In this document: positions 17,266 through 32,000 of the stretch, in pieces
Numbering within the stretch: the first letter of the stretch is position 1
How the letters are laid out: each line of letters starts with the position of its first letter
DNA from: Mucisphaera calidilacus
Lineage (GTDB): Bacteria > Planctomycetota > Phycisphaerae > Phycisphaerales > Phycisphaeraceae
Length of the DNA stretch: 32,000 nt
Direction: 5' to 3'
Assembly: GCF_007748075.1 (NCBI RefSeq)
Contig: NZ_CP036280.1
Span: 2,280,001-2,312,000, forward strand
Program-made: the position numbers and the translations under genes
Notes under the pieces: model-generated
What the model was told of the DNA's origin: nothing
What the model saw: the letters and a program-made list of their open reading frames with translations, nothing else
Database searches by the model: none

Positions 17266-18345
17266 ATGAGCCTCAAAGCACCCCCCACGCTCTCCGACAT
17301 CGCACTCAAGTGCAATCTGTCCAAAGGCTCCGTGAGCCGGGCACTCTCCATGACCGCCGACGAGTGCCCCCTCAACCCGCGCACCCGCAAACGGGTCATC
17401 AAGGTCGCCCGCGAGATGGGCTACCGCGTCAACGCTCACGCACGAGCCCTCTCCAAGGGCCGATCCCAGAACATCGGGCTCGTCTACGAAGGCGCCCTCC
17501 CCGTCCTCGACTCTGTGTATCACGACATCATCGAGAGCCTCCTCCTCGAGCTGCGCGCACGCGACTACCACCTCTCGCTCATACCCATCGACGAAAAACG
17601 CAGCTGGGAAGACGCCATCCTCACCGGCCGCATCGACGCCTGCGTCTGCTTTCAGGAATACCCCGAGCACGTCGCCGAAACGCTCCAGCGACGCAACATG
17701 CCCATCGTCCTGCTCAACGGCATCTCCGACAAAGCCACGGGCGTCATCTGCCCCAACGACCGCCAGGGCACGGAGCTGGGTGTCAAGCACCTCGTTGACC
17801 TCGGGCACCGGGATATCGCCTTCGTCGCCGACATCGAGAGTGCTACACCGCACTACTCCATTCTCGAACGACGCAACGCCTTCCTCGATGCCATGCACGA
17901 ACTCGTCGGACCCGCCGACGAGAGCACACGGATCTACAACAGCACCATCAGCCTCGCGCGCGCCCTCCAGACCGGACACGCGCCCACCGCCGTACTCTGC
18001 TACTCCCACTTCGAGGCTATCCCTGTCATCCGACACATCCGACGTGCGGGCTTCGACATCCCGCACGACATCAGCCTCCTCGCCTTTAACGACGTCTTCC
18101 CCGTCGACGTGCTCGACCCCGCGCTCTCCTGTATCGCCGTCCCCGCAGAGGCCATCGGGCGTTCCGGCGCGCGGATGATCCTCGAGCAGATCGAAATCGT
18201 CGAGAGCGGCAGCGCGAGCAACCTCATCAACACCAGGCTCATCCTTGACGAAGAGCTTGTCCTGCGCGAATCAACCGCACCGGTCCGTGCCGGCGCAACA
18301 ACCAACGGAGTCCACGGTTCATCATCTCGTATCGCACCTTTTTAG
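17266..18345 (+). CDS. LacI family transcriptional regulator
   Basis: 359 aa. N-terminal HTH TLSDIALKCNLSKGSVSRALS...RKRVIKVAREMGYRVNAHARALSKGRSQNIGLV, then a periplasmic-binding-protein-like sugar-binding fold. Confidence 0.9.
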   Translation: MSLKAPPTLSDIALKCNLSKGSVSRALSMTADECPLNPRTRKRVIKVAREMGYRVNAHARALSKGRSQNIGLVYEGALPVLDSVYHDIIESLLLELRARDYHLSLIPIDEKRSWEDAILTGRIDACVCFQEYPEHVAETLQRRNMPIVLLNGISDKATGVICPNDRQGTELGVKHLVDLGHRDIAFVADIESATPHYSILERRNAFLDAMHELVGPADESTRIYNSTISLARALQTGHAPTAVLCYSHFEAIPVIRHIRRAGFDIPHDISLLAFNDVFPVDVLDPALSCIAVPAEAIGRSGARMILEQIEIVESGSASNLINTRLILDEELVLRESTAPVRAGATTNGVHGSSSRIAPF

Positions 18346-18359
18346 GGAGGAATCACACC

Positions 18360-19877
18360 ATGATTAGAATCACAGCCGCAGCCGCCATCGCAGCACTCAC
18401 CCTCGGCACCTCGTCTGCCCAGGCCGTCGATTTCGGCGTTCTTGACACGACCCTGTTCAACAACTCCGGATTCTCCTTTGGCTTCGATTCTCTCGACACC
18501 ACGGGCGACTCTTTCCTGCTCGACACCGCCCAGTTTGGTGGAGCTGGTGCCGACCTCCCCGCCATCGTCGATTTCGATCTTGGCTCCGCTCAGCTCGAAC
18601 TCAACCTGACGATCGATCCCCTCAACGTCGCTCAGGACATGCGCGTCGTCCTCGTTGATAATGACGGGCCGCTGGCGGGCGAGGAATTCCAGTACTTCGT
18701 CAACCTTGCCGGCCTCCCAGTCGGCACCCCCATCAACATCGCCCTGCCCTTCGCGACCAACGCGCCCGTCTTCACGCAGCCCGCCTTCGGCAAGCTGCCG
18801 GGTGACGGCGTCGAGAACTTCGGTCTCCGGCAGATCCAGTTCCAGAGTGCTTTTGGCTCGACCGACCGGCTTGTGCTCGACATCCAGAACGTCAAGGTCA
18901 CCGATCCCGAGGATCCGACCATCCTCGCCCTCACCCCCGCCACCTACGCGGCCTCGACAGACCGCTTCACCTTCGGCTCCTTCACTGTCGAGGGTGCCGT
19001 CAATACCGACAACGACACTTTTGTCATCGACGCCGACGTCACCAACGAGTTTGAATTCCCTGGCACCTCCTTCGGCGGGCTCGGCTTCAACCTCGATCCC
19101 TTTGACTTCGACGCCGACGCCTCCGAACTCGTCATCCGCGCCAAGGCACTCCCCGACAACGAGGCCGAGAAGTTCCGCGTCCTCATGAGTGACGTCGACG
19201 GCGACGACTCCGCGCCCGGCCTGGGCTCCGACGACTACGCCTTCGAAGTCGATATCGCCACCCTCTCCGACACCGAGTTCACCGAGATCATCATCCCCCT
19301 TGGGACCGGATCGGAGACCTCCATCGACGACAGCCCAACCTTTGGCTTCACCCATTTTGGCAACGGCCTCCAGGACTTCGGGCTCACCGGAATCCAGATC
19401 ACGGCCGTCGGTGCCGATGTGCTCACGCGGCTCAACATCGAGGTCGAATCCGCGGTCATCCGTGAACGCGAAGACTCGGGTCTCGAAGGCGACTTCAATA
19501 ACGATGGCGTCGTCGACGCCGACGACATTGACCTGCTCGTTGCGGGCATCATCGACGGCTCTGACAACCTCTACGACCTCGACCAGTCCGGCACCGTCGA
19601 CGCGGGCGACCTCGACTACATGGTCACCACGCTGCTCGGCACGCTCTTCGGCGACGCCAACCTAGACAGCAGCGTCGATCTGCTCGACCTCTCCGCACTC
19701 GCCTCCAACTTCGAGGGCACCGCCGGATGGGCGGGGGGCAACTTCAACACCGACACCACCGTCGACCTGCTTGACCTCTCGGCCCTCGCTTCCAGCTTCG
19801 GCCAGACGCCCGTACCCGAGCCCGCCTCCGCGGCTCTGCTCACGCTCACCGCCGCCGGCCTTGTCCGCCGACGCTGA
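18360..19877 (+). CDS. PEP-CTERM-anchored secreted protein: two copies of an unassigned beta-sandwich-like module plus dockerin-like repeats
   Basis: 505 aa. GGGAGG lies upstream, only 14 nt after the LacI-family gene stop. Signal peptide [23 protein letters not shown]-terminus [17 protein letters not shown]...[21 protein letters not shown]...[22 protein letters not shown], then [22 protein letters not shown] (PEP motif, TM helix, basic tail). Confidence 0.85.
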
Positions 19878-19904
19878 ACGATCACCGTGTTGTCACACAC
19901 ACTT

Positions 19905-19928
19905 CGCGACCGCCGAGAGACGGGCGCG
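19905..19928 (+). terminator. Weak hairpin after the 18360 gene
   Basis: CGCGACCG-ccgagaga-CGGGCGCG: an 8-bp stem with one mismatch, followed by aggTTTc. The T-tract is poor. Confidence 0.25.
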
Positions 19929-20002
19929 AGGTTTCAGGCTCACGCAAGAGCAACAACCCAAGCAGCACGCACTTCGTTCCGCGCACATCGGAAGGAAACA
20001 AG

Positions 20003-20893
20003 ATGTCACGTACCCGCCAAGCCTTCACCCTGATCGAACTCCTGGTGGTCATCTCCATCATCGCCCTGCTCATCGGGATCCTCCTGCCCGCGCTTTCTGC
20101 GGCACGCGAGACCGCGCGTTCGATCACCTGTGGTTCCGGGGAGCGGCAACTCGGCATCGCCTTGTTCGTCTACGCGGACGCCAACGCCGGCTACCTGCCT
20201 CTGGGACTTGATCGGGGACACATGAACGTCGGAGGATCAGGTATCCGAGATAACCAAGACGGGCAGAACTCTGACTGGGCTATGAAGCTTCTCAATATCA
20301 TGGAGCCCGGCTCGCCCGCCACCTGGGACGAAGAAGGGCAGCAGGGAGGCGGCACCGAGGGGCTCGCACGATTCTTCGCATGCCCGTCGGGCATTGAACA
20401 AGAAGGCGGCTTCAACCGCATCCGCCAGTACGCCACGCATCCGCGCGTGATGCCCGACAGTGGAACCGTCGACTTCTACCGCTTCTACACGACATCTGAG
20501 CAACAAGGCCTCTACAACAGCAAACTCGACGCCATCAAGAACCACTCCAGCATTCTCGCCCTCACCGACACATCCCAGAATGAAGACGACGAATGGAACG
20601 GCTCATCGACACTCTTCAACCTCAATGACAGCGGCATCCTTAAGGCCCCCTTCTGGGTCGCCGGACTCGAGAACAGCTCCATCTCCGGCCTCCAATTCGA
20701 CCAGTACGACCAGCCCATCGACGTCGGCAACAACGTCGACGCAGGTTACAGCGACTGGGGACAGATCCGCTTCCGCCACGGCGGCAACAACACCGCCAAC
20801 GCCCTCATGCTCGACGGGCACGTCGAGAACTTCAATTACTCGAGCAACACCAGCCACAACATCGAAGCGGACAACGTTTACGTTCAGTACTGA
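20003..20893 (+). CDS. Prepilin-type N-terminal cleavage/methylation domain protein, DUF1559 (H-X9-DG-like) pseudopilin
   Basis: [40 protein letters not shown] is the class-III signal typical of the planctomycetal DUF1559 family. The C-terminal region is [22 protein letters not shown]; here the His-to-DG spacing is 11, not 9. GGAAGGA lies upstream of the ATG. Confidence 0.9.
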
Positions 20894-20918
20894 GCGCAAA
20901 CCGTTTCCGGAAGTGACC

Positions 20919-22739
20919 ATGCCCAAGCCACTCACAACAACCCTGTGCCTCCTCCTGATCGGCCTGTGGATGGCCGGCAACACGAGCACCAGCCTCGGCG
21001 ACCCCGGCGTGATGACCATCAACAACGTCACGCCCGCGGTCGTCGTCGGCTGGGACCTCGACACCACCTGGCAGACAACGGGCGGCGAACTGGATCGCGC
21101 CACCGTCACGCGTCCCCGGGCCGACGCTCAGACACCCGATGAGATCACCTCCATCATTCAGCTCGACATCCCCGGCAACATCAAGCAACGCTGGGCCATA
21201 CAACTCCGCGCCGAGAACCAGACCGCCATCCGCAAGGGCGACACGCTCCTCGCCTCCTTCTCCATGCGCTGCGTCAAGTCCATGAACGGCTCCGCTTACG
21301 CGGGTATCGCTCTGGAACGCGCGGGCGAGCCCTATGACAAGTCCATACACCTCGAACTCAGTGCTCCTCAGATCTGGCAGCACTACAACATCCCCTTCAC
21401 CGCGCACGACAGCTTCGAGCCCGGAGAAGCACAACTCGTGCTCCAACTCGGTTTCGACACGCAGACCGTCCAGATCGCCAACGCCCGGCTCCTCAACTAC
21501 GCCGACAAACTCAGCCTCACCGACCTGCCCGCCATCGAGTTCACCTACCCCGGTCAGGAGGCCGACGCGCCCTGGCGTGCTCAGGCCGAGGCACGCATCG
21601 AACGACTCCGAAAAGCCGACCTCAACATCATCGTCACCGACAACCGCGGACGCCCCCTACCCGACGCACACGTCAGCATCCACCTCGATAACCACCGATT
21701 CATCTTCGGCACCGCCGTCGCCCTGGGCGGCATCGTCAATGACACGCCAGACGACAGGAAATACCGCGAGATCCTCAAGCAGAACTTCAACCACGTCGTC
21801 TTCGAGAACGCCATGAAGTGGAAGAACCACGGCATCGGCACACCCGAGCAGATCGACGACGCCCTCGCGTGGCTCAGTGACAACAACCTCCCCGTCCGCG
21901 GACACGTGCTGATCTGGCCCGGCTGGAACGTCATCCCCGAAGACGTGCGGGCTCTCGAGAATGACCCCGAGACGCTCCGCGCCGTCGTTAACGACCGCGT
22001 CCGATCCACCGCCTCACGCTACCGCGGACGCATCACCGACTGGGACGTGATGAACGAGCCCTTCACCAACCACGACCTTATGGACATCCTTGGCTACGGC
22101 GAGATGGCCGAGTGGTTCCGACAGGCCGAGCTTGGCGACCCCGACGCTCCACGCTTCATCAACGACTACGGCATCCTCGCCGCCGGCGCACGGCCAACAC
22201 GGCATCAGGAACACTACGAGCAGACGATCCAGCGACTCATCGACGAGGGCGCTCCCATCGACGGCATCGGCATGCAGGGGCACTTCGGCTGGAATCTCAC
22301 CGGCCCCGAACGGCTTCTCGAGATCCTCGACCGCTTCGCTGCCTTCGGTCTGCCCATCCGCGTGACGGAGTTCGATATCGACATCACCGACCGGCAGCTC
22401 CAGGCCGACTACACCCGCGACTTCATGACCACCCTCTTCAGCCACGCCTCCGTCGATGGCATCCTCATCTGGGGATTCTGGGAGAACCGGCACTGGCGCA
22501 GCACCGCCGCGCTCTACAACGCCGACTGGACGCCCAGGCCCCACGCGCTCGTCTGGCAGGACCTTATCCACAACCACTGGCACACGAACGAGTCCGCCAC
22601 CACTGACCGGCGCGGCCGAGTAACGCTCCGCGGGTTCCACGGCGACTACACGGTCACCATCAGCCACGACAACCGCACGTCAACCCACAAGGCCACCATC
22701 AACCCCGGCGAGAACACGCTGACCATCGAACTGGACTAA
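20919..22739 (+). CDS. Secreted GH10 endo-1,4-beta-xylanase with N-terminal CBM4_9/CBM22-like module
   Basis: I start at ATG 20919 (MPKPLTTTLCLLLIGLWMAGNTSTSLG, a signal peptide) inside track ORF 20460..22739. GH10 blocks are present: FNHVVFENAMKWK, VRGHVLIWPGW, WDVMNEP (acid/base Glu) and RVTEFDID (nucleophile Glu). Confidence 0.9.
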   Translation: MPKPLTTTLCLLLIGLWMAGNTSTSLGDPGVMTINNVTPAVVVGWDLDTTWQTTGGELDRATVTRPRADAQTPDEITSIIQLDIPGNIKQRWAIQLRAENQTAIRKGDTLLASFSMRCVKSMNGSAYAGIALERAGEPYDKSIHLELSAPQIWQHYNIPFTAHDSFEPGEAQLVLQLGFDTQTVQIANARLLNYADKLSLTDLPAIEFTYPGQEADAPWRAQAEARIERLRKADLNIIVTDNRGRPLPDAHVSIHLDNHRFIFGTAVALGGIVNDTPDDRKYREILKQNFNHVVFENAMKWKNHGIGTPEQIDDALAWLSDNNLPVRGHVLIWPGWNVIPEDVRALENDPETLRAVVNDRVRSTASRYRGRITDWDVMNEPFTNHDLMDILGYGEMAEWFRQAELGDPDAPRFINDYGILAAGARPTRHQEHYEQTIQRLIDEGAPIDGIGMQGHFGWNLTGPERLLEILDRFAAFGLPIRVTEFDIDITDRQLQADYTRDFMTTLFSHASVDGILIWGFWENRHWRSTAALYNADWTPRPHALVWQDLIHNHWHTNESATTDRRGRVTLRGFHGDYTVTISHDNRTSTHKATINPGENTLTIELD

Positions 22740-22745
22740 GCCGCC

Positions 22746-25289
22746 ATGCTGTACCACGGACACGTCCGAAGCGCTCTCGCGATCGCCTGCCTCACCGCAA
22801 CCACCGCCGTCGCCGGTGCAGCCGAGATCACCCTCTCCGATTTCAACAACGCCGGCTTCGACTACACCTTCGACAACTTCACGCAGACCCTCGGCCCTGA
22901 CGTCCTCAGACTCACTGACACCAGCGACGGCTGGGGGGGAGGCGGCATGAACGACGCCTACGACCTCTCGGCTTTCGCCGAAGCAAGGATCGTCGTCGAC
23001 GCCATCGCCAACCCCGACAACCGCGTCGACACGTTCACGATCGAACTCATCGACACCCACGGCAATTCAGGCAAGTGGGACTTTGCCACCACTGACCTGC
23101 TCCCGACCGGCAGCACACGACTCGTCGCGCGTAAGACCCTGGAGAACCCCGAGTCAGGCATCAACGACTACCAGAGTCTCGACCTCGCCAACATCACCAA
23201 ATGGCAGCTGCTCGGGCAGTGGAATTCGCCTTCGCCCGTCGACCTCAGCTTCGACAACGTCATCATCTCCACCGACGCCCCTCCGCCGCCCGCCTACCCC
23301 GGCGCCGAACCCGACGCCCCCTGGCGCGCCGAGGCCGCGGCACGCATCGAGCAGCACCGCAAGGCCGGTCTGAGCCTCATCGTCACAGCGGGCAACGCCG
23401 CCCCGGCCAGCGACGTCACCGTCCGCGTCGACATGACACGGCACGACTTCACCTGGGGAACCGCCGCCGCCGCCTGGCGCATTGAGGAGAACAACGCCGC
23501 CAGCCAGACGTACAAGGACAAACTCCACGAGAACTTCAACGCCGTGACGCTTGAGAACGCCCTCAAGTGGCCGCCGCTCGAAGGCGAGTGGGGCCACAGG
23601 TTCGACAAGCAGACCTCCGCTGCCGCACTCGACTGGCTCTCCGACAACAGCTTCGACGTCCGTGGCCACGTCCAGGTGTGGCCGGGTTATGACAACCTCC
23701 CTGGATCGGTCAGAACTAAGATCGACGCGTTCAACAGCACTGCCTCCGCCACAGTTCGGGACCAGCTCCGCGCCGAGATCCAGACCCTCATCGAGGATCA
23801 CATCACCGAGCTCGCCCTGCACACCGACGGGACCATCACCTGGTGGGACATGGTCAACGAGACCCGCGCCAACCGCGACCTCATCGAGATCTTCGGCGAA
23901 TCCGAGGTCGCCCACTGGTTCAACCTCGGCAGACAGGCCAACCCCGACACCCCTCTGTTCCTCAATGACTACGGCATCCTCTCCTCGGGTGGGAGTACCA
24001 ATTCCAACAACCAGCAGTTTTACGAAGACCAGATCCAACGCATCATCGACGACGGCGGAGCCATCGACGGCATCGGCTTCCAGGCTCACTTTGACGAGAA
24101 CAGCATCACCGGTCCCGCAGCAATCAACACCATCCTCGACCGATATGCCGCGTTTGGCCTCGACCTCCACATCACCGAGTTTGACCTCGATACCACCGAC
24201 GAGGAGCTCCAGGCACAGTACACCCGCGACTTCCTCACGATCATCTTCGCGCACCCCGACGTCGACGCCTTCACCATGTGGGGGCTCTGGGAAGATGCCC
24301 ACTGGAAACCCGACGCGGCGATGTACCGTAACGACTGGTCCATCAAGCCCAACGGCATCGCCTATCAGGACCTCGTGCTCAACCAGTGGTGGACCGACGA
24401 GCAAACCTCCACCGACGCTGAGGGTCAGGCCGCCGCCCGCGTCTTCCTTGGCACACACACCATCACGCTCGAACACCGGGGCATCACCCAGACTTACCTA
24501 GGCGTCAACATCGACGACGACACCAGCCTCGATCTCCAGCTCGCTGACGGCTACGACGGAACCATCCACGCCGACGTCACCAACACCTCAGGCAGACTCC
24601 ACGTCGCAGGCGACGGCATCATCGGTCGACTCAGCCTCGCGGGCAGCTACACCCAAATCGACGATGCGACCCTCGTACTCGATCTCGAGCCGACCGGGCG
24701 CGACACCCTCTTCGCCGACACGATACACCTCGGCGGAACCCTCGAACTGCGCGTCGCCTTCGGCTACACGCCCGCGCCCGGGACCCCACTGCCCATCTTC
24801 TTCGCTAACCAGTACACCGGTGCCTTCGACGACGTGTTCGCCGACCGACTCGTCGTCGAAACCTACACCGCCGGACAGCTCTTTGGCGTCAACGTCCTCG
24901 CAATCCTGGGCGACTTCAACCTCGACCAGCAACTCACGGCCGACGATGTCGACATCCTCCTCGCCAACCTCGGCAACCCCGCCTACGACCTCACCCGCGA
25001 CAACACCGCCGACCACGACGACCTCCACCACCTCATCACCTTCCTGATGCAGGGCACCCCGGGTGACGCCAACCTCGATCACACCGTCGATCTTCTCGAC
25101 CTCTCCATCCTCGCCGCCAACTTCGACACCGCCGGCAACTGGACCGCGGGCGACTTCAACAACGACAACAGCATCAATCTCCTCGACCTCTCGATCCTTG
25201 CCGCCAACTTCGGCAGGAGCACCATCCCCGAGCCCGGCACACTCACCGCGCTCCTCTTGTCCACCACACTCTGCCGTCGTCGCCGATAG
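22746..25289 (+). CDS. Cell-surface GH10 xylanase: N-terminal unassigned module, GH10 domain, beta-strand-repeat region, dockerin-like repeats and PEP-CTERM anchor
   Basis: 847 aa with signal peptide MLYHGHVRSALAIACLTATTAVAGA. GH10 blocks: FNAVTLENALKWP, VRGHVQVWPGY, WDMVNET, HITEFDLD. C-terminus GDFNLDQQLTADDVDILL...[21 protein letters not shown]...GDFNNDNSINLLDLSILAANFG, then TIPEPGTLTALLLSTTLCRRRR. Confidence 0.9.
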   Translation: MLYHGHVRSALAIACLTATTAVAGAAEITLSDFNNAGFDYTFDNFTQTLGPDVLRLTDTSDGWGGGGMNDAYDLSAFAEARIVVDAIANPDNRVDTFTIELIDTHGNSGKWDFATTDLLPTGSTRLVARKTLENPESGINDYQSLDLANITKWQLLGQWNSPSPVDLSFDNVIISTDAPPPPAYPGAEPDAPWRAEAAARIEQHRKAGLSLIVTAGNAAPASDVTVRVDMTRHDFTWGTAAAAWRIEENNAASQTYKDKLHENFNAVTLENALKWPPLEGEWGHRFDKQTSAAALDWLSDNSFDVRGHVQVWPGYDNLPGSVRTKIDAFNSTASATVRDQLRAEIQTLIEDHITELALHTDGTITWWDMVNETRANRDLIEIFGESEVAHWFNLGRQANPDTPLFLNDYGILSSGGSTNSNNQQFYEDQIQRIIDDGGAIDGIGFQAHFDENSITGPAAINTILDRYAAFGLDLHITEFDLDTTDEELQAQYTRDFLTIIFAHPDVDAFTMWGLWEDAHWKPDAAMYRNDWSIKPNGIAYQDLVLNQWWTDEQTSTDAEGQAAARVFLGTHTITLEHRGITQTYLGVNIDDDTSLDLQLADGYDGTIHADVTNTSGRLHVAGDGIIGRLSLAGSYTQIDDATLVLDLEPTGRDTLFADTIHLGGTLELRVAFGYTPAPGTPLPIFFANQYTGAFDDVFADRLVVETYTAGQLFGVNVLAILGDFNLDQQLTADDVDILLANLGNPAYDLTRDNTADHDDLHHLITFLMQGTPGDANLDHTVDLLDLSILAANFDTAGNWTAGDFNNDNSINLLDLSILAANFGRSTIPEPGTLTALLLSTTLCRRRR

Positions 25290-25295
25290 CGTCGA

Positions 25296-27830
25296 TTATC
25301 GCTCGATCACGCACGCCCAGTCTTCATCTGAACCGTGCGGTGCACGACCGATACCCTCCACACTTCCGCCACGCACACGACGGACCGTTCCCTCCATCTG
25401 TTCACCCCCCTCGCGCGGGTCAAACCACCGCACCGACAACCAGCCCCGCGCGTCCGAGAGGTCCAGCCGCACGTCCTGACGATCCGACATGTACACCACA
25501 TACACCTCGCCTGGCTTCGCCAGGCAGTGCACGTGCCCCAGATCCTCCGTCGTCACGATCAGATCGTCACGACTCACCATCTCACGCACGGGCAGGCTCC
25601 TGAAGAACGTCAACGCGTGTCCCGCCCAGCGCCAGCTCGCGTCACGACTCCGCCAGTCCTCGCACACCAGATCATTCTCAGGCAGCTTGTACCCAAAGTA
25701 ATACTCCACACCTGCGCCACCCGCCATCAGGTTCCCCCACAACGTCCGCTTGCGCACGTCCGCCGCCGTGTAATCCACCATCGACGGGTCAAAACCCGGA
25801 TACCCAGCGTCAGGCGGCACGCCCGTCGTCGCATGGCCCTGCTCGTCATTCGTCACGATCCACGTCTTCCCCGACGCCTCCGATGCACGCAGCCACTTCA
25901 GCGTCAACGCGTGCACCTTCGACCAGTCATTCTGAAGACTCGCCGACGTCAGCACCGAACGATCGCCGAGCAACGGCTCGTACACCTCGTCCTGTCGATG
26001 CGGGTAGGAGTGCACGTCGATCGGATGGTCATAGGCGTCGATCTGGTCCAGGTAGGCGCCCATCGCACGCAGCTGCGCTGGCGTCTGCGTGTTCTCCTCT
26101 CCCAGAATCCATGTGAGCACCGGCAGGTGTGCGTACCGAGCCACCAGCTCCCGCAGATAAAGCTTTCGCTCCAGCCCCAGCTCCCCGCCGTCCAACGCTC
26201 GCGGGACATCCGACACCTGATCAACACCGCGAACCAGGTCGTCGTTCTCCGTCTCCTGCAGCTTGAAGTGCAGGTGAATCCCACGCCGCTGCGCGTGATC
26301 AAACACGATCCCCCACTGGTCCAGCTTCGAGCAGTCAAACCGATGCGTCCGCACCCGCGACACATAAGGCCAGACATTATCCCCGTCCCCTCCGGCGTTG
26401 TACGTCAGGAACGAAACCGTGTTGCACCCCGTCGACGCCAGGTAATTCAATGCACCGATCAGACCCTTGCCCTGATCGCCACGCCACACCGGATCACCCT
26501 CACGCCAGTCACCCACATGCGCCGTATAGGTCTTGAGCGGCCCGCGACGAATCGTTGCTACCGTCCCGTCAAAGTCCTCATACGCCAGCAGCGTCTCGGG
26601 CGAATCGGGACCCGCCTTCAGAAACACCGCATCACTCCCCAGATGACGCGGGTAGCGCTCACCCAGATAAACCACACGCCCCGCACCCCGGAAATCGGAC
26701 ACCCCCTTGTCCGTCTCAGCGACCTCGAACGAACCCCGCAGCCCGTTGTAGGCCGCAACCGGCTTGCCATCGTCCGAGACCGCGCAGTTCGGCCCCGTGT
26801 GCAATGAGACGCTGTAATGCCACACACCAGCACGGTCAGGCGAGAAGTGCGCCCGCCACGTCGTGCCCGACGCCGCCCCCGTCTGCCCCGCATTACCGTC
26901 CGCCGCAAAGTACCCGGGCACCGTGTAGACCGGGAGGCCCGACGCGTGCCGGAAACGAGCCGTCATCCGGTAATCCGTGAACGGGTTGATCGCGCCACCC
27001 AGTTCATGCGCGAACGGACCATCCAGTGAAAGCGTGGTCGTGTGCCACACACGACGCTCGCCGCTGATCGTCACCTCCCCCGAGCCAGCCGCGCCGTCAG
27101 GCAGCACCTCCGCCTCAGGCAGCGCTCCCGCCGCCACACGAACCTCCGGACCCGTCGATCCCTCCGGGTGCTCATAGTCCGGGTCCAGCGTCATGAACCA
27201 CTTGTCAAACTCCGTGCCGTCCTCACGCATCGAGAACTGCACCACGTGCTCGCCCGCCTCCTCGATGTCCAGCCAGATCTGGCCCGGCACGCCCGTGTGC
27301 ACCTCCGCCGTCCGCTGCTTGCTGTCCCACCACCACGTGCGCTTCGCCGTCCATTGCAGACGCCGACCACTCTCGGGCCATTCGCCATTCAAACCCACGT
27401 GCAGCCCGTTGTCTTCCGTCCCCGTCGAATAGATCCGTGCCCAGACGTAATAACGACCGGGCTCGTCCACCCGTACCCGGTAACTCAGCACCGCCATCGT
27501 CCCCGGCTCGTGCGCAATATTCTCACCCACCACCAGCGGGTCGTCATGCGTCCGACGCGTGTCAGGCAGCACCTCCAGATACGCCTCCCCCGAAGCGCCC
27601 CGCGCATGATTATCGTCCGGGTCACTGCTCGACTCAGGCGTCTGGTCAAGTGTCACCAGCCGCCACGAACGAACCTCCCCCTTGGTCTGATCAAAAGCAT
27701 GCTCCGCCTCGACAGCGATCACACCCTCAACCGCACCAAAGACCACGTCCTCAGGCACCTGAGCCCACGCACCCGCGACACCCCAGAACCAACCCAGCCA
27801 GACCACAAAAACCAGCCTCGAAACAGACAC
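25296..27830 (-). CDS. Secreted DUF5060-domain glycoside hydrolase (GH5-like TIM barrel) with N-terminal CBM-like domain and C-terminal collagen-binding-type beta-sandwich
   Basis: DUF5060 pattern NPFTDYRMTARFRHASGLPVYTVPGYFAADGNAG...WRAHFSPDRAGVWHYSVS, then a TIM-barrel-like part (GCNTVSFLTYNAGGDGDNVWPY, HLHFKLQETEND, ILGEENT). I prefer GTG 27830 ((M)SVSRLVFVVWLGWFWGVAGAWAQ, a signal peptide). The track start GTG 27887 is the alternative. Confidence 0.85.
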   Translation of the reverse strand: MSVSRLVFVVWLGWFWGVAGAWAQVPEDVVFGAVEGVIAVEAEHAFDQTKGEVRSWRLVTLDQTPESSSDPDDNHARGASGEAYLEVLPDTRRTHDDPLVVGENIAHEPGTMAVLSYRVRVDEPGRYYVWARIYSTGTEDNGLHVGLNGEWPESGRRLQWTAKRTWWWDSKQRTAEVHTGVPGQIWLDIEEAGEHVVQFSMREDGTEFDKWFMTLDPDYEHPEGSTGPEVRVAAGALPEAEVLPDGAAGSGEVTISGERRVWHTTTLSLDGPFAHELGGAINPFTDYRMTARFRHASGLPVYTVPGYFAADGNAGQTGAASGTTWRAHFSPDRAGVWHYSVSLHTGPNCAVSDDGKPVAAYNGLRGSFEVAETDKGVSDFRGAGRVVYLGERYPRHLGSDAVFLKAGPDSPETLLAYEDFDGTVATIRRGPLKTYTAHVGDWREGDPVWRGDQGKGLIGALNYLASTGCNTVSFLTYNAGGDGDNVWPYVSRVRTHRFDCSKLDQWGIVFDHAQRRGIHLHFKLQETENDDLVRGVDQVSDVPRALDGGELGLERKLYLRELVARYAHLPVLTWILGEENTQTPAQLRAMGAYLDQIDAYDHPIDVHSYPHRQDEVYEPLLGDRSVLTSASLQNDWSKVHALTLKWLRASEASGKTWIVTNDEQGHATTGVPPDAGYPGFDPSMVDYTAADVRKRTLWGNLMAGGAGVEYYFGYKLPENDLVCEDWRSRDASWRWAGHALTFFRSLPVREMVSRDDLIVTTEDLGHVHCLAKPGEVYVVYMSDRQDVRLDLSDARGWLSVRWFDPREGGEQMEGTVRRVRGGSVEGIGRAPHGSDEDWACVIER

Positions 27831-27969
27831 GTCATGCCCTTTCAATAATCTAACTCGTCCCCAGTGTAACGCCGCCCGTGATCCCACACCCTCTCAACCC
27901 TCACCCACACCAGACAGCCAGAGGCCGACGGCCGGATCTCGTGATCAGAGGGATGCCCGAGAGGATGTG

Positions 27970-29283
27970 TCAGTCGTCAGACTGGACTTCCTTGAGGGCG
28001 AAGGCGGAGACGGCGGCGAGGGCGCAGAGGATGGCGAAGAGGGCGAGGACGGCGGGTGTGCCGTAGGCCTGCGCGATGATGCCGAAGCCTGAGGTCAGGA
28101 GCAGGAGGGCGCCGATGATGGTGTTGGAGAGTGCGGTGTAGGCGGCGCGGGTTTCGGGTGTGGCCATGTCGACGAGGTGGACGGACCGTCCGAGGCGCAC
28201 GCCCTGGTAGGCGATCATGAGGGCGAAGAGGCAGAACGGGAGCATGAGGTAGAGGGTTGATGCGTTGGGCATAATCCATGCGAGCGTGGCGGTACTGGCG
28301 AGGATCGCCGCGGCGATGAGTGCGGAGAGGATGAGGACCCATCGGCTCGAGCGGTCGGCGAGTCTGCCCCACGCGTAGGTGCTGAGGAGTGCCGCGAGTG
28401 AGCTGGCGATCACGAACCACCCGAGTCGGCTGTAGCCGGCGTCGCGTTGGTCGAGCATGACGATGTAGGGCGGAGCGATGGCGGTGGTGGTGAGGAGCCC
28501 GCGTGTGAGGATGTAGATCAGGAGTTGCCGGTCGGTGGTGAGGCGTGTGAGGTTCTCGCGGACGACGCTGAGCGGTGTGCGTCCGCCCTCGGTCGATCCT
28601 GCTTCTTCATGGAGACGGGCCATGAGCAAGGCGGCGGTGATCCAGAGGGTGGCGGCGAGAAGAAGGACGGCGACGATGACGGGAATGGTGCGCGGGAGGA
28701 TGCCCGTGGCCAGAAGGATGCCGAAGGTGAGGACGCCAGCGGCGGCGAGCGTGCTGGCGGTTCCGGTGGCGGTTCCGCGCGTGGCCTTGGAGACGGTCTT
28801 GCCCAGGACATCCTTGTAGCTGACGGAGCAGACGGAGCGCCCAAGGGCGAAGACGGCGAGGAGTGCGGTGATGGCGATGCCTGCCTCGGCGCCGCGGAGG
28901 AGCATGGCGGCGGCAGCGATACCCATGACGGCGAGGGCCTGGACGAGTGAGCCGGCGGCCCAGGCCCACTTGCGCTGGGGCATGGATCGGATCCATCCGG
29001 AGCTGACGAGCTGGGGCAGGAGTGATCCGGCCTCGCGGACGGGGACGAGGAGGCCGACGAATCCGGCGGGTGCGCCGAGCGCGTTGACGAGCCAGCTGAG
29101 GACGAGTTTGGGATCAATGAGCCCGTCGCCTGTCTTGGTGCATGCGAGGGTGGCGACGTGGGTGAAGAAGTTGGCGGGTTGTTCCCTGCAGGCTTCGTCG
29201 GGGATGTCCCGGCAGGCCCTGCCGTCATCCTCGGCGGTGAGGAGTTGGTGGGCCCGTTCGAGGGTGGTTGAGGAGTCGGTCAC
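27970..29283 (-). CDS. MFS transporter (family with conserved N-terminal Cys-containing cytoplasmic segment)
   Basis: The track ORF extends to 29517 through a Pro/Thr-rich stretch that overlaps the upstream gene. I start at GTG 29283, 10 nt after stop 29294. DDGRACRDIPDEACREQPANFFTHVATLACTKTGDGLIDPKLVLSWL is followed by about 12 hydrophobic helices. Confidence 0.8.
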   Translation of the reverse strand: MTDSSTTLERAHQLLTAEDDGRACRDIPDEACREQPANFFTHVATLACTKTGDGLIDPKLVLSWLVNALGAPAGFVGLLVPVREAGSLLPQLVSSGWIRSMPQRKWAWAAGSLVQALAVMGIAAAAMLLRGAEAGIAITALLAVFALGRSVCSVSYKDVLGKTVSKATRGTATGTASTLAAAGVLTFGILLATGILPRTIPVIVAVLLLAATLWITAALLMARLHEEAGSTEGGRTPLSVVRENLTRLTTDRQLLIYILTRGLLTTTAIAPPYIVMLDQRDAGYSRLGWFVIASSLAALLSTYAWGRLADRSSRWVLILSALIAAAILASTATLAWIMPNASTLYLMLPFCLFALMIAYQGVRLGRSVHLVDMATPETRAAYTALSNTIIGALLLLTSGFGIIAQAYGTPAVLALFAILCALAAVSAFALKEVQSDD

Positions 29284-29293
29284 AGGGGATAGG

Positions 29294-30040
29294 TTAGCGG
29301 CCCGCGGTGGCGGGGTTCCAGTTGTCGAGGGTGGGCGGTTGTGCTGAGGCGGGTCGTTCGTAGGACGCGCTGGTGGGAGCGATGGTGGCGTGGCCGTCGG
29401 CGAAGGTGGTGGAGAGTTTGTCGCTGTGTCGCAGGGCGAGGTCGTCGTCGGGGTTGACGTTGTAGAGGTTCCAGTAGTGTGCCATGACGTGGTTGGCGTC
29501 GTCCTCGACTTCGCCATGGATCACGGTCGCTGAGGGGGCGGGGAGTGCGCGTGCGGAGTGCCAGAGGTTGCCGTTGAGTGCGATGTTTTCTTCGGGGTCG
29601 TCAGGAATCAGGCTGGGGTAGACGGATTGCCCGTAGGAGAAGTCGGTGGTGGCGGTTCGCTGGTCTTCCGGGCAGCGGAGGTGGGTGTTGTAATAGGCGA
29701 GGGCGTCGGGGTTGTCTTCGAGGTAGAAGTCGCCGAAGAGTACAGCGGTTCGGACGGAGGGTGCGCCGAGATAGGGAGCGAGCTGGAGGTCCCATTCGAG
29801 GGTGTCGGAGAAGCCGCCGTGGTTGGTGGGCGGGAAGCGGTCGTCGTGGTCGTGGAGATAGATGATGAGTGCCTGGGCGATGGATCGTGTTTTGGCGAGA
29901 CAGTTCACGGCGCGGGCATGGGAGCGAGCGGCGGCGAGCGCGGGCAGGAGAATGCCGATAAGCAGCGCGATGATCGAGATCACGACGAGGAGTTCGATCA
30001 GGGTGAAGCCCGACGAGGATCGGTGGATCGGGTGATTCAT
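29294..30040 (-). CDS. Prepilin-type N-terminal cleavage/methylation domain protein, DUF1559 (H-X9-DG) pseudopilin
   Basis: [47 protein letters not shown], with C-terminal RHSDKLSTTFADGH (exact H-X9-DG). Its start overlaps the upstream stop (ATGA at 30040-30037). Confidence 0.9.
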   Translation of the reverse strand: MNHPIHRSSSGFTLIELLVVISIIALLIGILLPALAAARSHARAVNCLAKTRSIAQALIIYLHDHDDRFPPTNHGGFSDTLEWDLQLAPYLGAPSVRTAVLFGDFYLEDNPDALAYYNTHLRCPEDQRTATTDFSYGQSVYPSLIPDDPEENIALNGNLWHSARALPAPSATVIHGEVEDDANHVMAHYWNLYNVNPDDDLALRHSDKLSTTFADGHATIAPTSASYERPASAQPPTLDNWNPATAGR

Positions 30041-31032
30041 GCGGCGCTGCGTCGGGTTGCCGAGAGCGTGAGGGGCAAGAGGAGTGCGAGGGTTGAGGGA
30101 GTGGGGACGGCGTCGGTGTTGAAGTGAGTGGCAAGGAGAGAGAGGTCGAGGAGGTTGGTGGTGCCGTCGCCGTTGGCATCGCCCTGCGTCCAGCTGGTGT
30201 TGGTGTCGTCGAAGCTGGCGGCGAGATTGGAGAGGTCGAGGAGGTCGACGGTGAAGTCGAGGTTGGTGTCTGCCGGGAGTGTGCCGATGAGGGTCTGGAT
30301 GAGGTAGGTGCGGTCGTCGTTGTTGACGATGCCGTTGTTGTCGTAGTCCATGTCGGGTGTGGTGGTGTCGGTACGGAGGGCGAGGCTGATGGCGTCGATG
30401 TCGTCGGCGGTGTAGTCGGGTGTGGAGACGTTATCGATCCATGTGAGGGTGATTTCGCCTGGGATAAAGAGCTCGCTGAGGGAGCCGGGTGTTCCGTTGA
30501 GGTCCTGAGCAACGTAGACGGAGAAGGTGGCTTCGTAGGTTCCGGGTTCGTCGGTGACGTGCCAGTGGTGGGTCATGCGTCCGTCCCACTGCCAGTAGGC
30601 GGGTGAGTCGTCGGTGGAGAAGATAGGCGCGAGCGTGTGTTCGCCGTTGAGGTCGCCGGAGATTCCGCCGCCGGCATCGGTGCCGTAGGCGCCTTCGTAG
30701 ATGTGGAGTCCGGGCGTGCTGTCGATGCGTTCGATGAAAACCCCTTCGCCGGGTCCGGGCCCCCATCGTCCCTGCCGGAGCCAGCCGTACTGGGCGTTGT
30801 AGGCGCGGTCTTCGAGAACGTCGTAGGGCGGGTCAAGGGGTGGTTCGCCGGGGACCATGAGCAGGCCGTCGCCCGGGTCGTCATCGAAGGTGATGACGAG
30901 GGGGAAGCTGCCGTTGACGGGCGCCGCGACGCCGACGTTGAGGTGGTTCATGAGCCCGCCGAGGTAGACACCATCGGCGAGCGCATGGGTCGCGAGGCAG
31001 AGTGTCATGATCAGGGAGGTGAGGTTTCTCAT
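30037..31032 (-). CDS. Secreted protein: unknown N-terminal domain (paralogue of the next gene), dockerin-like repeats and PEP-CTERM-like anchor
   Basis: 331 aa with signal peptide MRNLTSLIMTLCLATHALA. C-terminus [20 protein letters not shown]...GDANGDGTTNLLDLSLLATHF, then VPTPSTLALLLPLTLSATRRSAA (PEP replaced by PTP). Its start overlaps the upstream stop (ATGA at 31032-31029). Confidence 0.8.
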   Translation of the reverse strand: MRNLTSLIMTLCLATHALADGVYLGGLMNHLNVGVAAPVNGSFPLVITFDDDPGDGLLMVPGEPPLDPPYDVLEDRAYNAQYGWLRQGRWGPGPGEGVFIERIDSTPGLHIYEGAYGTDAGGGISGDLNGEHTLAPIFSTDDSPAYWQWDGRMTHHWHVTDEPGTYEATFSVYVAQDLNGTPGSLSELFIPGEITLTWIDNVSTPDYTADDIDAISLALRTDTTTPDMDYDNNGIVNNDDRTYLIQTLIGTLPADTNLDFTVDLLDLSNLAASFDDTNTSWTQGDANGDGTTNLLDLSLLATHFNTDAVPTPSTLALLLPLTLSATRRSAA

Positions 31033-31721
31033 CGCCGGCGTGCTCCGAGGAGTACGAGGGGGAGCAGGAAGGCGGCGGAGGCGGGTTCGGGGAGGACGGT
31101 GAATCCGAGGGTGACGGTGGTGTCGGTGTAGGTGGTGATGGGGTTGGCGTCGAGGTCGCTGACGTAGACGCGGAAGGTGAGGTCGTAGTCACCCGGCGCG
31201 GAGAAGGTGTACCAGTTGTGCTGCATGAGGAAGTCGTCGTCCCAGACCCATGCGGCGGGGCTCGCGTCGGTACCGTGGATGGGGCTCATGGCGTGGCCGA
31301 CGCTGTTGAGCTGCATGCCGTTGCCGCCCTCGTAAATGCCGATGGTTCCGGGTCCGGCGGTGGAGAGGAGTTCGAAGGCGATGTGCTCGTCGGGAGCGAT
31401 GTCGATGGGCGTGAAGCCGATGGTCTGGTCTTCGAGCCAGCCGTACTGGGCGTTGAAGGGGATGTTGTTGAGGACGTCGTAAGGCGTGGTGTAGGGCCCG
31501 CCGGTCATGGCGACGAGTCGTTGATCGGGTGTTGCGCCGCCTGAGGGGCCGTCGCGGAGGATGGCGGAGACGGCGTTATTCTGGACGGCGACTTCGACGT
31601 GGATCATGCCGTTGCCGGGCATGCCGAGGCCGCTGGTCATGCCGGGCATCGGGGGGATGGCGGCGTGAGCGTTGGCGGCGGCGAGGGTGGTCAGGACGGT
31701 GAGGGAAGCGATGCGGAACAT
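31029..31721 (-). CDS. Secreted PEP-CTERM protein with unknown domain (paralogue of 30037..31032)
   Basis: 230 aa. GGGAGA lies 9 nt upstream of ATG 31721. Signal peptide MFRIASLTVLTTLAAANAHA. The C-terminus VLPEPASAAFLLPLVLLGARRR is a canonical PEP-CTERM. Confidence 0.8.
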   Translation of the reverse strand: MFRIASLTVLTTLAAANAHAAIPPMPGMTSGLGMPGNGMIHVEVAVQNNAVSAILRDGPSGGATPDQRLVAMTGGPYTTPYDVLNNIPFNAQYGWLEDQTIGFTPIDIAPDEHIAFELLSTAGPGTIGIYEGGNGMQLNSVGHAMSPIHGTDASPAAWVWDDDFLMQHNWYTFSAPGDYDLTFRVYVSDLDANPITTYTDTTVTLGFTVLPEPASAAFLLPLVLLGARRR

Positions 31722-31742
31722 GGTTGGGTTTCTCCCGAGTGG

Positions 31743-31763
31743 ACTGCGGTGCGCGACCGCAGT
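31743..31763 (-). other. GC hairpin just upstream of the RBS of the 31721 gene
   Basis: ACTGCGGT-gcgcg-ACCGCAGT: a perfect 8-bp stem with a 5-nt loop, between stop 31817 and start 31721. No T-tract on either strand. Confidence 0.4.
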
Positions 31764-31816
31764 GGTGATTGGTGGGTCCCGGAGTCGTGTTGTGGATGAG
31801 GGGTTGCCTGAGGGGG

Positions 31817-32000
31817 TCAGGCTGCGGGCGGGGCGCGGTCGGAGCGGATGCGCAGGGCGTCGATCTGCTGGACGAGCGAGGGTGATTCGAGGGTGGGAAG
31901 GTCGTCGAGTCGTGTAACGACGGGGTCGAAGTGGACGGGTGGCGGCGGCGTGGTGATGGTTGCCTTGAGGTGGCAGATCATGCAGCCGCCGGCGGGTGGT
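31817..32000 (-). CDS. 3' end of a gene encoding a CXXCH (haem c-type) motif protein; 5' part beyond the right edge
   Basis: Absent from the track because it has no in-window start. The reverse-strand frame reads ...PPAGGCMICHLKATITTPPPPVHFDPVVTRLDDLPTLESPSLVQQIDALRIRSDRAPPAA and ends at TGA (31819-31817). GC3 bias is strong in this frame. Track ORF 31672..31917 (+) looks like its antisense shadow. Confidence 0.4.
   Translation of the reverse strand, partial: PPAGGCMICHLKATITTPPPPVHFDPVVTRLDDLPTLESPSLVQQIDALRIRSDRAPPAA

Follow-up and report, generated by a model that had tools for sequence, protein, structure and literature searches.

The first gene of DUF2946/CruR-type copper-homeostasis operons encodes a small exported protein, whose hallmark is a CXXC motif, a RAPP motif 45 residues further on (within 1-2 residues) and a long spacer (PMC9426467). 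The family is described as having "a few" members in Planctomycetes (Roy et al. 2022, PMC9426467). CruR itself (Bp2923, from Bordetella) represses an uptake operon when copper is present (PMC9426467), and in Rhodobacter capsulatus CutF (cutFOG) responds to copper by inducing a detoxifying enzyme (PMC9973294). The stalling motif of CutF is a C-terminal GPPPRL (bioRxiv 10.1101/2025.02.05.636593), and some CutF-like leaders are linked to HupE/UreJ genes (PMC9973294). Here we compare with these systems a block of minus-strand genes in a 32,000-nucleotide stretch of the Mucisphaera calidilacus genome (contig NZ_CP036280.1, positions 2,280,001 to 2,312,000; hereafter the window). The block contains the end of a leader gene followed by genes for two paralogous PEP-CTERM proteins (P1 and P2), a prepilin-like protein (the pilin) and a major facilitator superfamily (MFS) transporter.

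We propose, with a probability of roughly 0.55, that the block includes a Planctomycetota-specific envelope cassette under a metal-sensing leader, with copper as the probable metal, in which control would resemble that of CruR and CutF and the trio of P1, P2 and pilin would bind and pass copper. On this reading, the genes from P1 to the MFS gene would make up the downstream four-fifths of one operon of five genes, which the leader gene opens. The features are as follows.

31817-32000, minus strand: leader gene, 3' part (60 codons plus stop), cut by the window end, identified by translation
31722-31816, minus strand: leader-P1 spacer, 95 nucleotides, C-rich, with hairpins by RNA fold
31029-31721, minus strand: P1, 230 amino acids
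30037-31032, minus strand: P2, 331 amino acids
29294-30040, minus strand: prepilin-like, DUF1559-like protein (the pilin), 248 amino acids
27970-29283, minus strand: MFS transporter, 437 amino acids, GTG start
27830-27969: spacer from the MFS stop to the DUF5060 gene, coinciding with a GC-skew flip

The original prediction for this DNA had described the last four genes as a tightly coupled operon, and all four open reading frames (ORFs) were recovered at the positions it gave. Start and stop codons overlap as ATGA between P1 and P2 (31032-31029) and between P2 and the pilin gene (30040-30037), and 10 nucleotides separate the pilin stop from the MFS start (29293-29284); all three can be read in the sequence and confirm the coupling. 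The suggested paralogy of P1 and P2 was also confirmed (40% identity over 127 amino acids, E 1e-19), and the first three proteins are, as had been said, without an assigned function. The co-oriented leader gene, which runs from 31817 to beyond 32000, had been overlooked. A promoter and terminator scan found neither type of site on the minus strand, and detected no terminator-like site on that strand in the spacer between the MFS and DUF5060 genes. An Rfam scan of 27000-32000 gave only a CRISPR-DR match at E 0.26, which is chance level.

The conserved module and its leaders

We collected loci from the contigs of P1 relatives and from a scan with a core-domain alignment (the core domain being the one shared by P1 and P2), using one genome per GTDB species (32 loci). 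ORFs were called in the loci and searched with hidden Markov models (HMMs) built from the window proteins and their orthologues, which gave 36 non-redundant loci (L numbers below). Close relatives of P1 are few, only 13 among 5.8 billion protein clusters.

Two core-domain genes adjoin one orthologous prepilin-like gene in all 36 loci, which come from Phycisphaerae, Planctomycetales, Aeoliella (Pirellulales) and Isosphaeraceae. The order is core-core-pilin in 11 loci, including the window, and pilin-core-core in the other 25, and a leader heads both. In L026, a single ORF (7872-9182) contains both core domains, at residues 44-213 and 224-371. This fusion is Rosetta-stone-type evidence that the P1- and P2-type paralogues act together, probably as a heterodimer. 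In the flanks of 29 loci we found 139 Pfam families, each in at most three of 118 ORFs, and same-strand genes downstream of the module are housekeeping genes such as those for guanylate kinase and ribosomal protein S15. Neither copper genes nor any other conserved neighbours were found around the module in these 29 loci.

The conserved unit is therefore the leader, the two paralogues and the pilin, and not the four genes first proposed. Since the trio is kept in 36 of 36 loci, the MFS gene is limited to one clade and the flanks are heterogeneous, the trio forms a strongly conserved, self-contained cassette. Conservation of the predicted gene order thus holds for the trio and fails for the MFS gene, which the MFS HMM finds in four of 36 loci (the window, L001, L002 and L003, the Mucisphaera clade) and whose family is unrelated to the neighbouring genes. 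An obligate four-gene unit with the MFS was not borne out. Unlike in CruR operons, the cargo is not a TonB-dependent transporter with PepSY_TM, nor Sco, PCuAC, YcnI or CopC; it consists of two PEP-CTERM proteins and a prepilin-like DUF1559 protein, joined in this genome by the MFS.

The full M. calidilacus leader (P0287, 118 amino acids) was recovered by profile search, and its C-terminus is identical to that in the window. It is made up of an N-terminal hydrophobic anchor (residues ~8-23), CPLC, CMIC, 45 further residues, and RAPP followed by AA and the stop. Every related core-core-pilin locus with upstream sequence has a small co-oriented gene just before P1. Residues C74 and C77 are invariant in nine leaders, a CPxC lies between the hydrophobic segment and the CxxC, and the C-terminal motif of relatives is RAPP, RGPP or LAPP. 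The spacing from CxxC to R(A/G)PP is 45 residues in the window, L001, L002, L003, L007, L014 and L016, and 44 residues in L005, L009 and L030.

These are the features by which DUF2946/CruR proteins (PF11162) are recognised: fewer than 150 amino acids with a membrane segment, first place in the operon, CXXC, terminal RAPP and a spacing of about 45. The locus is like CruR operons in having a membrane-targeted first gene with CXXC-45-RAPP near the stop, a spacer of ~100-200 nucleotides and same-strand envelope proteins. As with CruR, there is remote but detectable Pfam DUF2946 similarity within the leader family. P0305, which matches the leader profile at E 1.6e-16, scores 26.6 bits on DUF2946, above the gathering score of 23.7, and eight other leaders or relatives give sub-threshold full-length alignments (20.8 bits for L007, 19.6 for L016, 17.6 for P0289 and 11-15 for five more). 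DUF2946 is the sole Pfam family matched more than once by the leaders and relatives scanned.

In the pilin-first loci, the product of the adjoining upstream gene is also small and rich in Cys, has a hydrophobic segment at its N-terminus and carries PPPR 1-8 residues before its end. These 25 of 36 loci are thus like CutF in the design and position of the leader, directly upstream of the module. They are unlike CutF in the Cys pattern (CGCxSAxxCxxxCCC or CGQxMCSC...CPLC, against CxxxC) and in a cargo without a multicopper oxidase; the likeness is at the level of motifs. A motif filter found a leader-like ORF in 31 of the 34 loci with upstream sequence, and similarity clusters added the leaders of L022 and L027, so that only L039 is without one.

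The spacer between leader and P1 contains one hairpin across the leader stop (31822-31806), an 8-bp hairpin at 31763-31743 and a Shine-Dalgarno-like GGGAG at ~31736-31732. By analogy with CruR and CutF, this spacer may have a regulatory role.

We considered CxxCH in the leader as a haem-c site and rejected it, because the His position is F, Q or Y in relatives.

Another explanation for the leader is that it is an export-monitoring arrest peptide (SecM/ApdA-like) and that the trio is a structural or adhesive appendage tuned to secretion capacity. RAPP occurs in arrest peptides that monitor the protein localisation machinery (cited in 10.1101/2025.02.05.636593), and a membrane-targeting segment is present at the N-terminus of the leader. 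Exopolysaccharide or floc formation is the usual association of PEP-CTERM proteins, and there are NCBIfam floc_PepA tail matches in the core family. This explanation does not account for the invariant CxxC at the DUF2946-specific spacing of 45 and the Pfam DUF2946 matches, nor for the Met/His motifs that we describe below in all three cargo proteins; it is one of the less likely readings, and we consider it highly improbable.

P1, P2 and the prepilin-like protein

P1 has a signal peptide, a Met-rich arm (AIPPMPGMTSGLGMPGNGMIH) that opens the mature protein in the Mucisphaera-like clade, a beta-sandwich core and a PEP-CTERM tail (VLPEPASAAFLLPLVLLGARRR). The core contains two MxH motifs (M39-x-H41 and M166-x-H168) and NAQYGW. 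P2 shares this core domain (GGLMNH ... NAQYGW ... MTHHW), behind which lie Ca-binding repeats that resemble dockerin (Pfam Dockerin_1 at 254-304, E 7e-5) and a variant PEP-CTERM tail, VPTPSTLALLLPLTLSATRRSAA (VPTPS...RRSAA). P1 was recognised as a PEP-CTERM protein (PF07589 / TIGR02595) by motif, hydrophobic helix and basic cluster, and P2 as a variant; the PEP-CTERM HMMs match 27-32 of 133 core family members but not P1 or P2 (E <= 0.1).

With clustering at 50%, the core profile matches 234 representative proteins, of which 159 have E <= 1e-10. P1 has nothing above threshold in Pfam or NCBIfam, and no model of either database covers the core domain in the 133 family sequences scanned, where models match only the C-terminal anchors, which are interchangeable (PEP-CTERM, GC-type dockerin and dockerin type I). 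Near-invariant in the 133 sequences are M39, M166, H168, W95 (in NAQYGW), Y130 and W160, and H41 is near-invariant in P1-family alignments. In most loci both paralogues carry the GxMxH and MxHNW motifs.

An AlphaFold2 model of the core from the 133-sequence alignment is an all-beta sandwich with a predicted local distance difference test score (pLDDT) of 88.6; an earlier model from 14 sequences had reached 74.6. A Foldseek search of the PDB with the 133-sequence model found no close fold (best E 3.3e-3, template modelling (TM) score <= 0.33), and both models gave only generic immunoglobulin-like partial matches (best E 1.3e-3 and 3.3e-3, TM <= 0.39). A search of PDB sequences with the core-profile HMM gave no meaningful match.

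Pairs of Met and His are classic axial ligands of haem in beta-sandwich cytochrome domains. The core, modelled as an all-beta sandwich, might therefore bind another Met/His ligand such as haem, in the manner of DOMON or cytochrome-like domains, either to capture haem or to transfer electrons outside the cell. The top 50 Foldseek PDB matches include no DOMON or CDH cytochrome domain, and the literature ties DUF2946 leaders to metal-ion homeostasis, not haem (PMC9426467). This too is one of the less likely readings, and we give it almost no credence.

We also considered identity of the core with Choice-of-anchor M / TIGR03769 and dropped it, because the P1 score of 18.5 bits is far below the two cut-offs (55 and 30.9). 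P2 has no match to either, and weak matches are found in 4 and 3 of the 133 family members. The core is like these proteins in being a secreted beta-rich domain with interchangeable anchors, and the weak match falls at the MxHNW-x-F-x-PG-x-Y strand. TIGR03769 proteins are associated with an anchored-repeat ABC (ATP-binding cassette) transporter of the metal-uptake type.

The core family also includes very long multidomain proteins with 2-4 core copies (P0014, with 1619 amino acids, P0030, P0045, P0063, P0075 and P0098). These have a different N-terminal motif (PPDWMPMTMLSITF) and low-GC-looking signal peptides, and are probably from other phyla.

At its N-terminus the pilin has a class III signal peptide and a helix like that of GspG; its prepilin motif is recognised by N_methyl (E 6.4e-8) and TIGR02532 (25.6 bits, cut-off 16.3). 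DUF1559 (SBP_bac_10) aligns to residues 37-132 only, at 21.1 bits against a gathering score of 23.3 (E 3.7e-4). Against solved pilins, the N-terminal helix alone matches. By inspection we found an H-X9-DG motif (HSDKLSTTFADG), in which H198, D208 and G209 are 94-97% conserved. Among 35 module pilins, H67 is 100% conserved and H177, M179, H181 and W183 are 97% conserved. The latter four belong to a (D/N)H-x-M-A-H-x-W motif, which reads NHVMAHYW in the window.

The pilin is thus like DUF1559 and GspG pseudopilins in its class III signal, N-methylation motif, GspG-like helix and H-X9-DG. It is unlike generic members in its H-x-M-A-H-x-W motif, which seven generic DUF1559 pilins from these loci do not have, and in its obligate linkage to two core genes; no secretion ATPase or platform gene is linked to it. 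Met/His motifs are conserved in all three structural proteins. Met and His are the typical ligand set of periplasmic Cu(I)/Cu(II) sites, as in CusF, CopC, PcoC and PCuAC.

The MFS transporter and other features of the window

P0162, a protein annotated at NCBI, has exactly the length and sequence of the MFS protein, and NCBI also holds a M. calidilacus protein that is 100% identical to P1. The MFS protein belongs to the superfamily by its match to MFS_1 (PF07690; 54.2 bits, cut-off 33.4, E 1.4e-14) and to no NCBIfam subfamily, with PgtP at 16 bits as the sole match. The gene lies directly 3' of the pilin gene in the window, upstream of the module in L002 and L003, where it diverges from an alkaline phosphatase gene, and 4 kb downstream of the module in L001, behind a pair of genes for an extracytoplasmic function (ECF) sigma factor and NrsF. 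It is not found within 8-10 kb of the module in the remaining 32 of 36 loci. The family counts at least 1980 proteins (57-61% identity), which come from Alphaproteobacteria, Acidobacteriota, Gemmatimonadota and Phycisphaerales; the first three of these groups lack the module, and neighbourhoods in three other phyla or clades are unrelated and uninformative. Conserved in the family are an N-terminal cytoplasmic motif (eDdGRvCrDIPe.AC..QP.nF..H, a C-x7-C...H pattern with C24, C32 and H42 at >= 95%) and C152, H369 and M373.

The MFS gene was added to the operon in one lineage and does not belong to the conserved machine. It is probably co-transcribed in M. calidilacus, and we speculate that it may carry the substrate of the trio across the inner membrane. 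The idea of an integral partner did not hold, given the restriction to one clade, the three different positions and the wide occurrence of the family without the module.

The phosphatase gene of the Mucisphaera clade is of the PhoA type (8031-9425 in L001, 6629-8017 in L002 and 6619-8004 in L003/L004), and it adjoins the upstream side of the MFS/leader/module region, in divergent orientation. In L001 the MFS gene directly follows the ECF sigma and NrsF-type anti-sigma genes at 15388-16514.

The gene beyond the MFS (25296-27887, minus strand) encodes DUF5060, GH115_C-like, apiosidase-like catalytic and collagen-binding-like domains. Its distance from the MFS gene had been given as about 140 nucleotides, which is correct if the true start is an in-frame GTG near 27829, a likely start with a good signal peptide; the longest ORF (27887) gives 82 nucleotides. 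This glycosidase is a neighbour in no other locus, and no glycosidase is conserved in the module flanks. It is a chance neighbour of the cassette, and an abrupt GC-skew switch also separates it from the block.

A plus-strand cluster (17266-25289) that resembles a xylan-utilisation cluster faces the block, with the following features.

17266-18345, plus strand: LacI-family regulator
18360-19877, plus strand: PEP-CTERM protein, 505 amino acids, no known domain
20003-20893, plus strand: DUF1559 prepilin
ends at 22739, plus strand: GH10 xylanase
22746-25289, plus strand: GH10 xylanase with dockerin and PEP-CTERM

The mirrored arrangement noted originally is therefore present, with a PEP-CTERM protein and a DUF1559 protein before two GH10 xylanases. 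Recurrence of this pair with other cargo suggests a general accessory theme.

These neighbours bear on the original interpretation, that the four genes form one envelope-spanning capture and uptake route for an unknown substrate, mirroring the xylanase cluster; we weighed it in the form in which the substrate is probably carbohydrate-related and the route is functionally tied to the glycosidase. In its favour are the tight coupling of the four genes in the window, the dockerin-like repeats on P2, the PEP-CTERM and DUF1559 pair before the plus-strand xylanases, and an MFS gene that stays near the module in four Mucisphaera-clade genomes despite rearrangements. Against it, 32 of 36 loci lack the MFS gene in the vicinity of the module, members of its family are common where there is no module, no glycosidase is conserved beside the module and the DUF5060 gene lies across the skew switch, dockerin and PEP-CTERM are interchangeable anchors within the core family, and a sugar role leaves the leader and the Met/His motifs unexplained. 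We regard this interpretation as improbable. What stands of the proposed route for an unknown substrate is a conserved, probably envelope-located module; the sugar role gives way to metal motifs.

The window also encodes a HupE/UreJ_2 protein that resembles Ni/Co transporters (9422-10678, minus strand, 418 amino acids, E 3e-44), in a minus-strand run (8197-9524, 10432-11466) beside a PPIase-domain protein.

Up to 27,900, the GC skew of the plus strand of the window lies between -0.05 and -0.33 and does not depend on gene orientation. Over this part, third codon positions favour G in minus-strand genes (+0.24 to +0.60), and plus-strand genes are rich in C. At ~27,900-27,970 the plus-strand skew flips within ~100 nucleotides from as low as ~-0.5 to +0.3 to +0.4. 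In L001-L003 it is uniform at -0.2 to -0.45 over 20 kb, and in other Planctomycetota loci it is near 0. The extreme skew of Mucisphaera-clade sequences follows the DNA strand and not gene orientation, with most genes, unusually, on the C-rich strand. A replication terminus, a replication origin or an inversion breakpoint might explain the flip.

Proposed function and significance

Because of the DUF2946/CruR-type leader and the Met/His motifs, we think that the substrate of the cassette is probably copper or another thiophilic metal, and not a polysaccharide. In the mechanism that we propose, the nascent leader would be targeted to the membrane, where its Cys motif (CXXC) would sense the metal. 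Metal binding would lengthen or relieve ribosome stalling at RAPP, 45 residues past the CXXC, and the change in stalling would alter access of Rho or exposure of the ribosome-binding site and so switch downstream transcription or translation. A P1/P2 heterodimer, predicted to be anchored at the surface via PEP-CTERM or dockerin tails, would bind copper, most likely Cu(I). The pilin-like protein, in or extending from the inner membrane, would bind and pass copper via His-x-Met-x-His. In M. calidilacus an MFS transporter was recruited to the 3' end of the operon in this scheme, and may move the same substrate across the inner membrane. The purpose of the cassette could be copper scavenging or sequestering.

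Several results weigh against this proposal. The window's own leader (P0287) has no Pfam DUF2946 match at E <= 1, and its assignment to the family therefore rests on motifs, spacing and relatives; unlike CruR, it is too divergent for the Pfam model. The leader-P1 spacer folds only weakly better than shuffles (minimum free energy -30.6 kcal/mol, z -1.9), and the hairpin-bearing spacers of L001-L005 (95-204 nucleotides) are not conserved in sequence. CopA, multicopper oxidase, Sco, PCuAC and TonB-dependent transporter genes are not conserved beside the module, and COX4_pro is found in only two of 118 flanking ORFs. The predicted metal binding by P1, P2 and the pilin is based on sequence motifs, and the involvement of copper is argued by analogy. 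Some CutF-like leaders are linked to Ni/Co systems and are not copper-specific (PMC9973294), and RAPP arrest peptides also monitor protein export. Because CruR- and CutF-type leaders regulate oppositely in their model organisms, either uptake or defence would be compatible with the leaders.

Copper defence is a serious alternative to uptake, possible though rather unlikely in our judgement. The leader would turn the genes on as copper, silver or another thiophilic metal rises, the trio would sequester the metal or hand it off away from the cytoplasm, and the MFS would either act as an exporter or have no part in the process. Periplasmic proteins of Cu(I) detoxification typically have Met-rich arms, and the MFS gene of L001 follows an ECF sigma/NrsF pair, a stress-type regulator. 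In most loci (those with the pilin-first order) the leader is of the CutF-like PPPR type, and CutF switches on a detoxifying enzyme (PMC9973294). However, no efflux pump or multicopper oxidase accompanies the module, and the window leader is CruR-like (RAPP, spacing of 45), with CruR repressing an uptake operon in the presence of copper (PMC9426467).

A more specific version of the uptake proposal is that the dedicated pseudopilin and the Met/His beta-sandwich heterodimer form an unrecognised copper-capture machine that passes copper inward, with the MFS importer completing the route in M. calidilacus. CcoA of Rhodobacter capsulatus, an MFS-type copper importer, would be the precedent for the role of an MFS protein after an outer capture step. 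Unlike CcoA, the window MFS family has its conserved Cys and His in the N-terminal cytoplasmic segment and loops, and not in transmembrane Met motifs. We consider this version unlikely. If true, the machine would replace the TonB-dependent OprC-type transporters of Proteobacteria under the same nascent-peptide copper sensor. The pilin would then be the first DUF1559 paralogue with a predicted ligand, and the DUF1559 family would be ligand-specific periplasmic shuttles generally.

The cargo, a dedicated DUF1559 pseudopilin and two proteins with an unmodelled domain, is not described in the literature that we searched, and the regulatory part is a new divergent branch of the known DUF2946/CruR/CutF family. 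The annotation of the locus is corrected in that the MFS and the glycosidase are not members of the system, and a new domain family is defined for which there is no Pfam or NCBIfam model (234 clusters at 50% identity). The cassette would extend nascent-peptide metal sensing of the CruR/CutF type beyond Proteobacteria, to a cargo unreported in the literature searched, and the occurrence of RAPP and PPPR leader flavours on one cargo could help explain what sets the direction of regulation. DUF1559 prepilin-like and PEP-CTERM proteins are among the largest function-unknown families in Planctomycetota and have been without an experimental handle; the cassette gives one orthologous set of them a testable copper response in cultured M. 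calidilacus and named residues to mutate.

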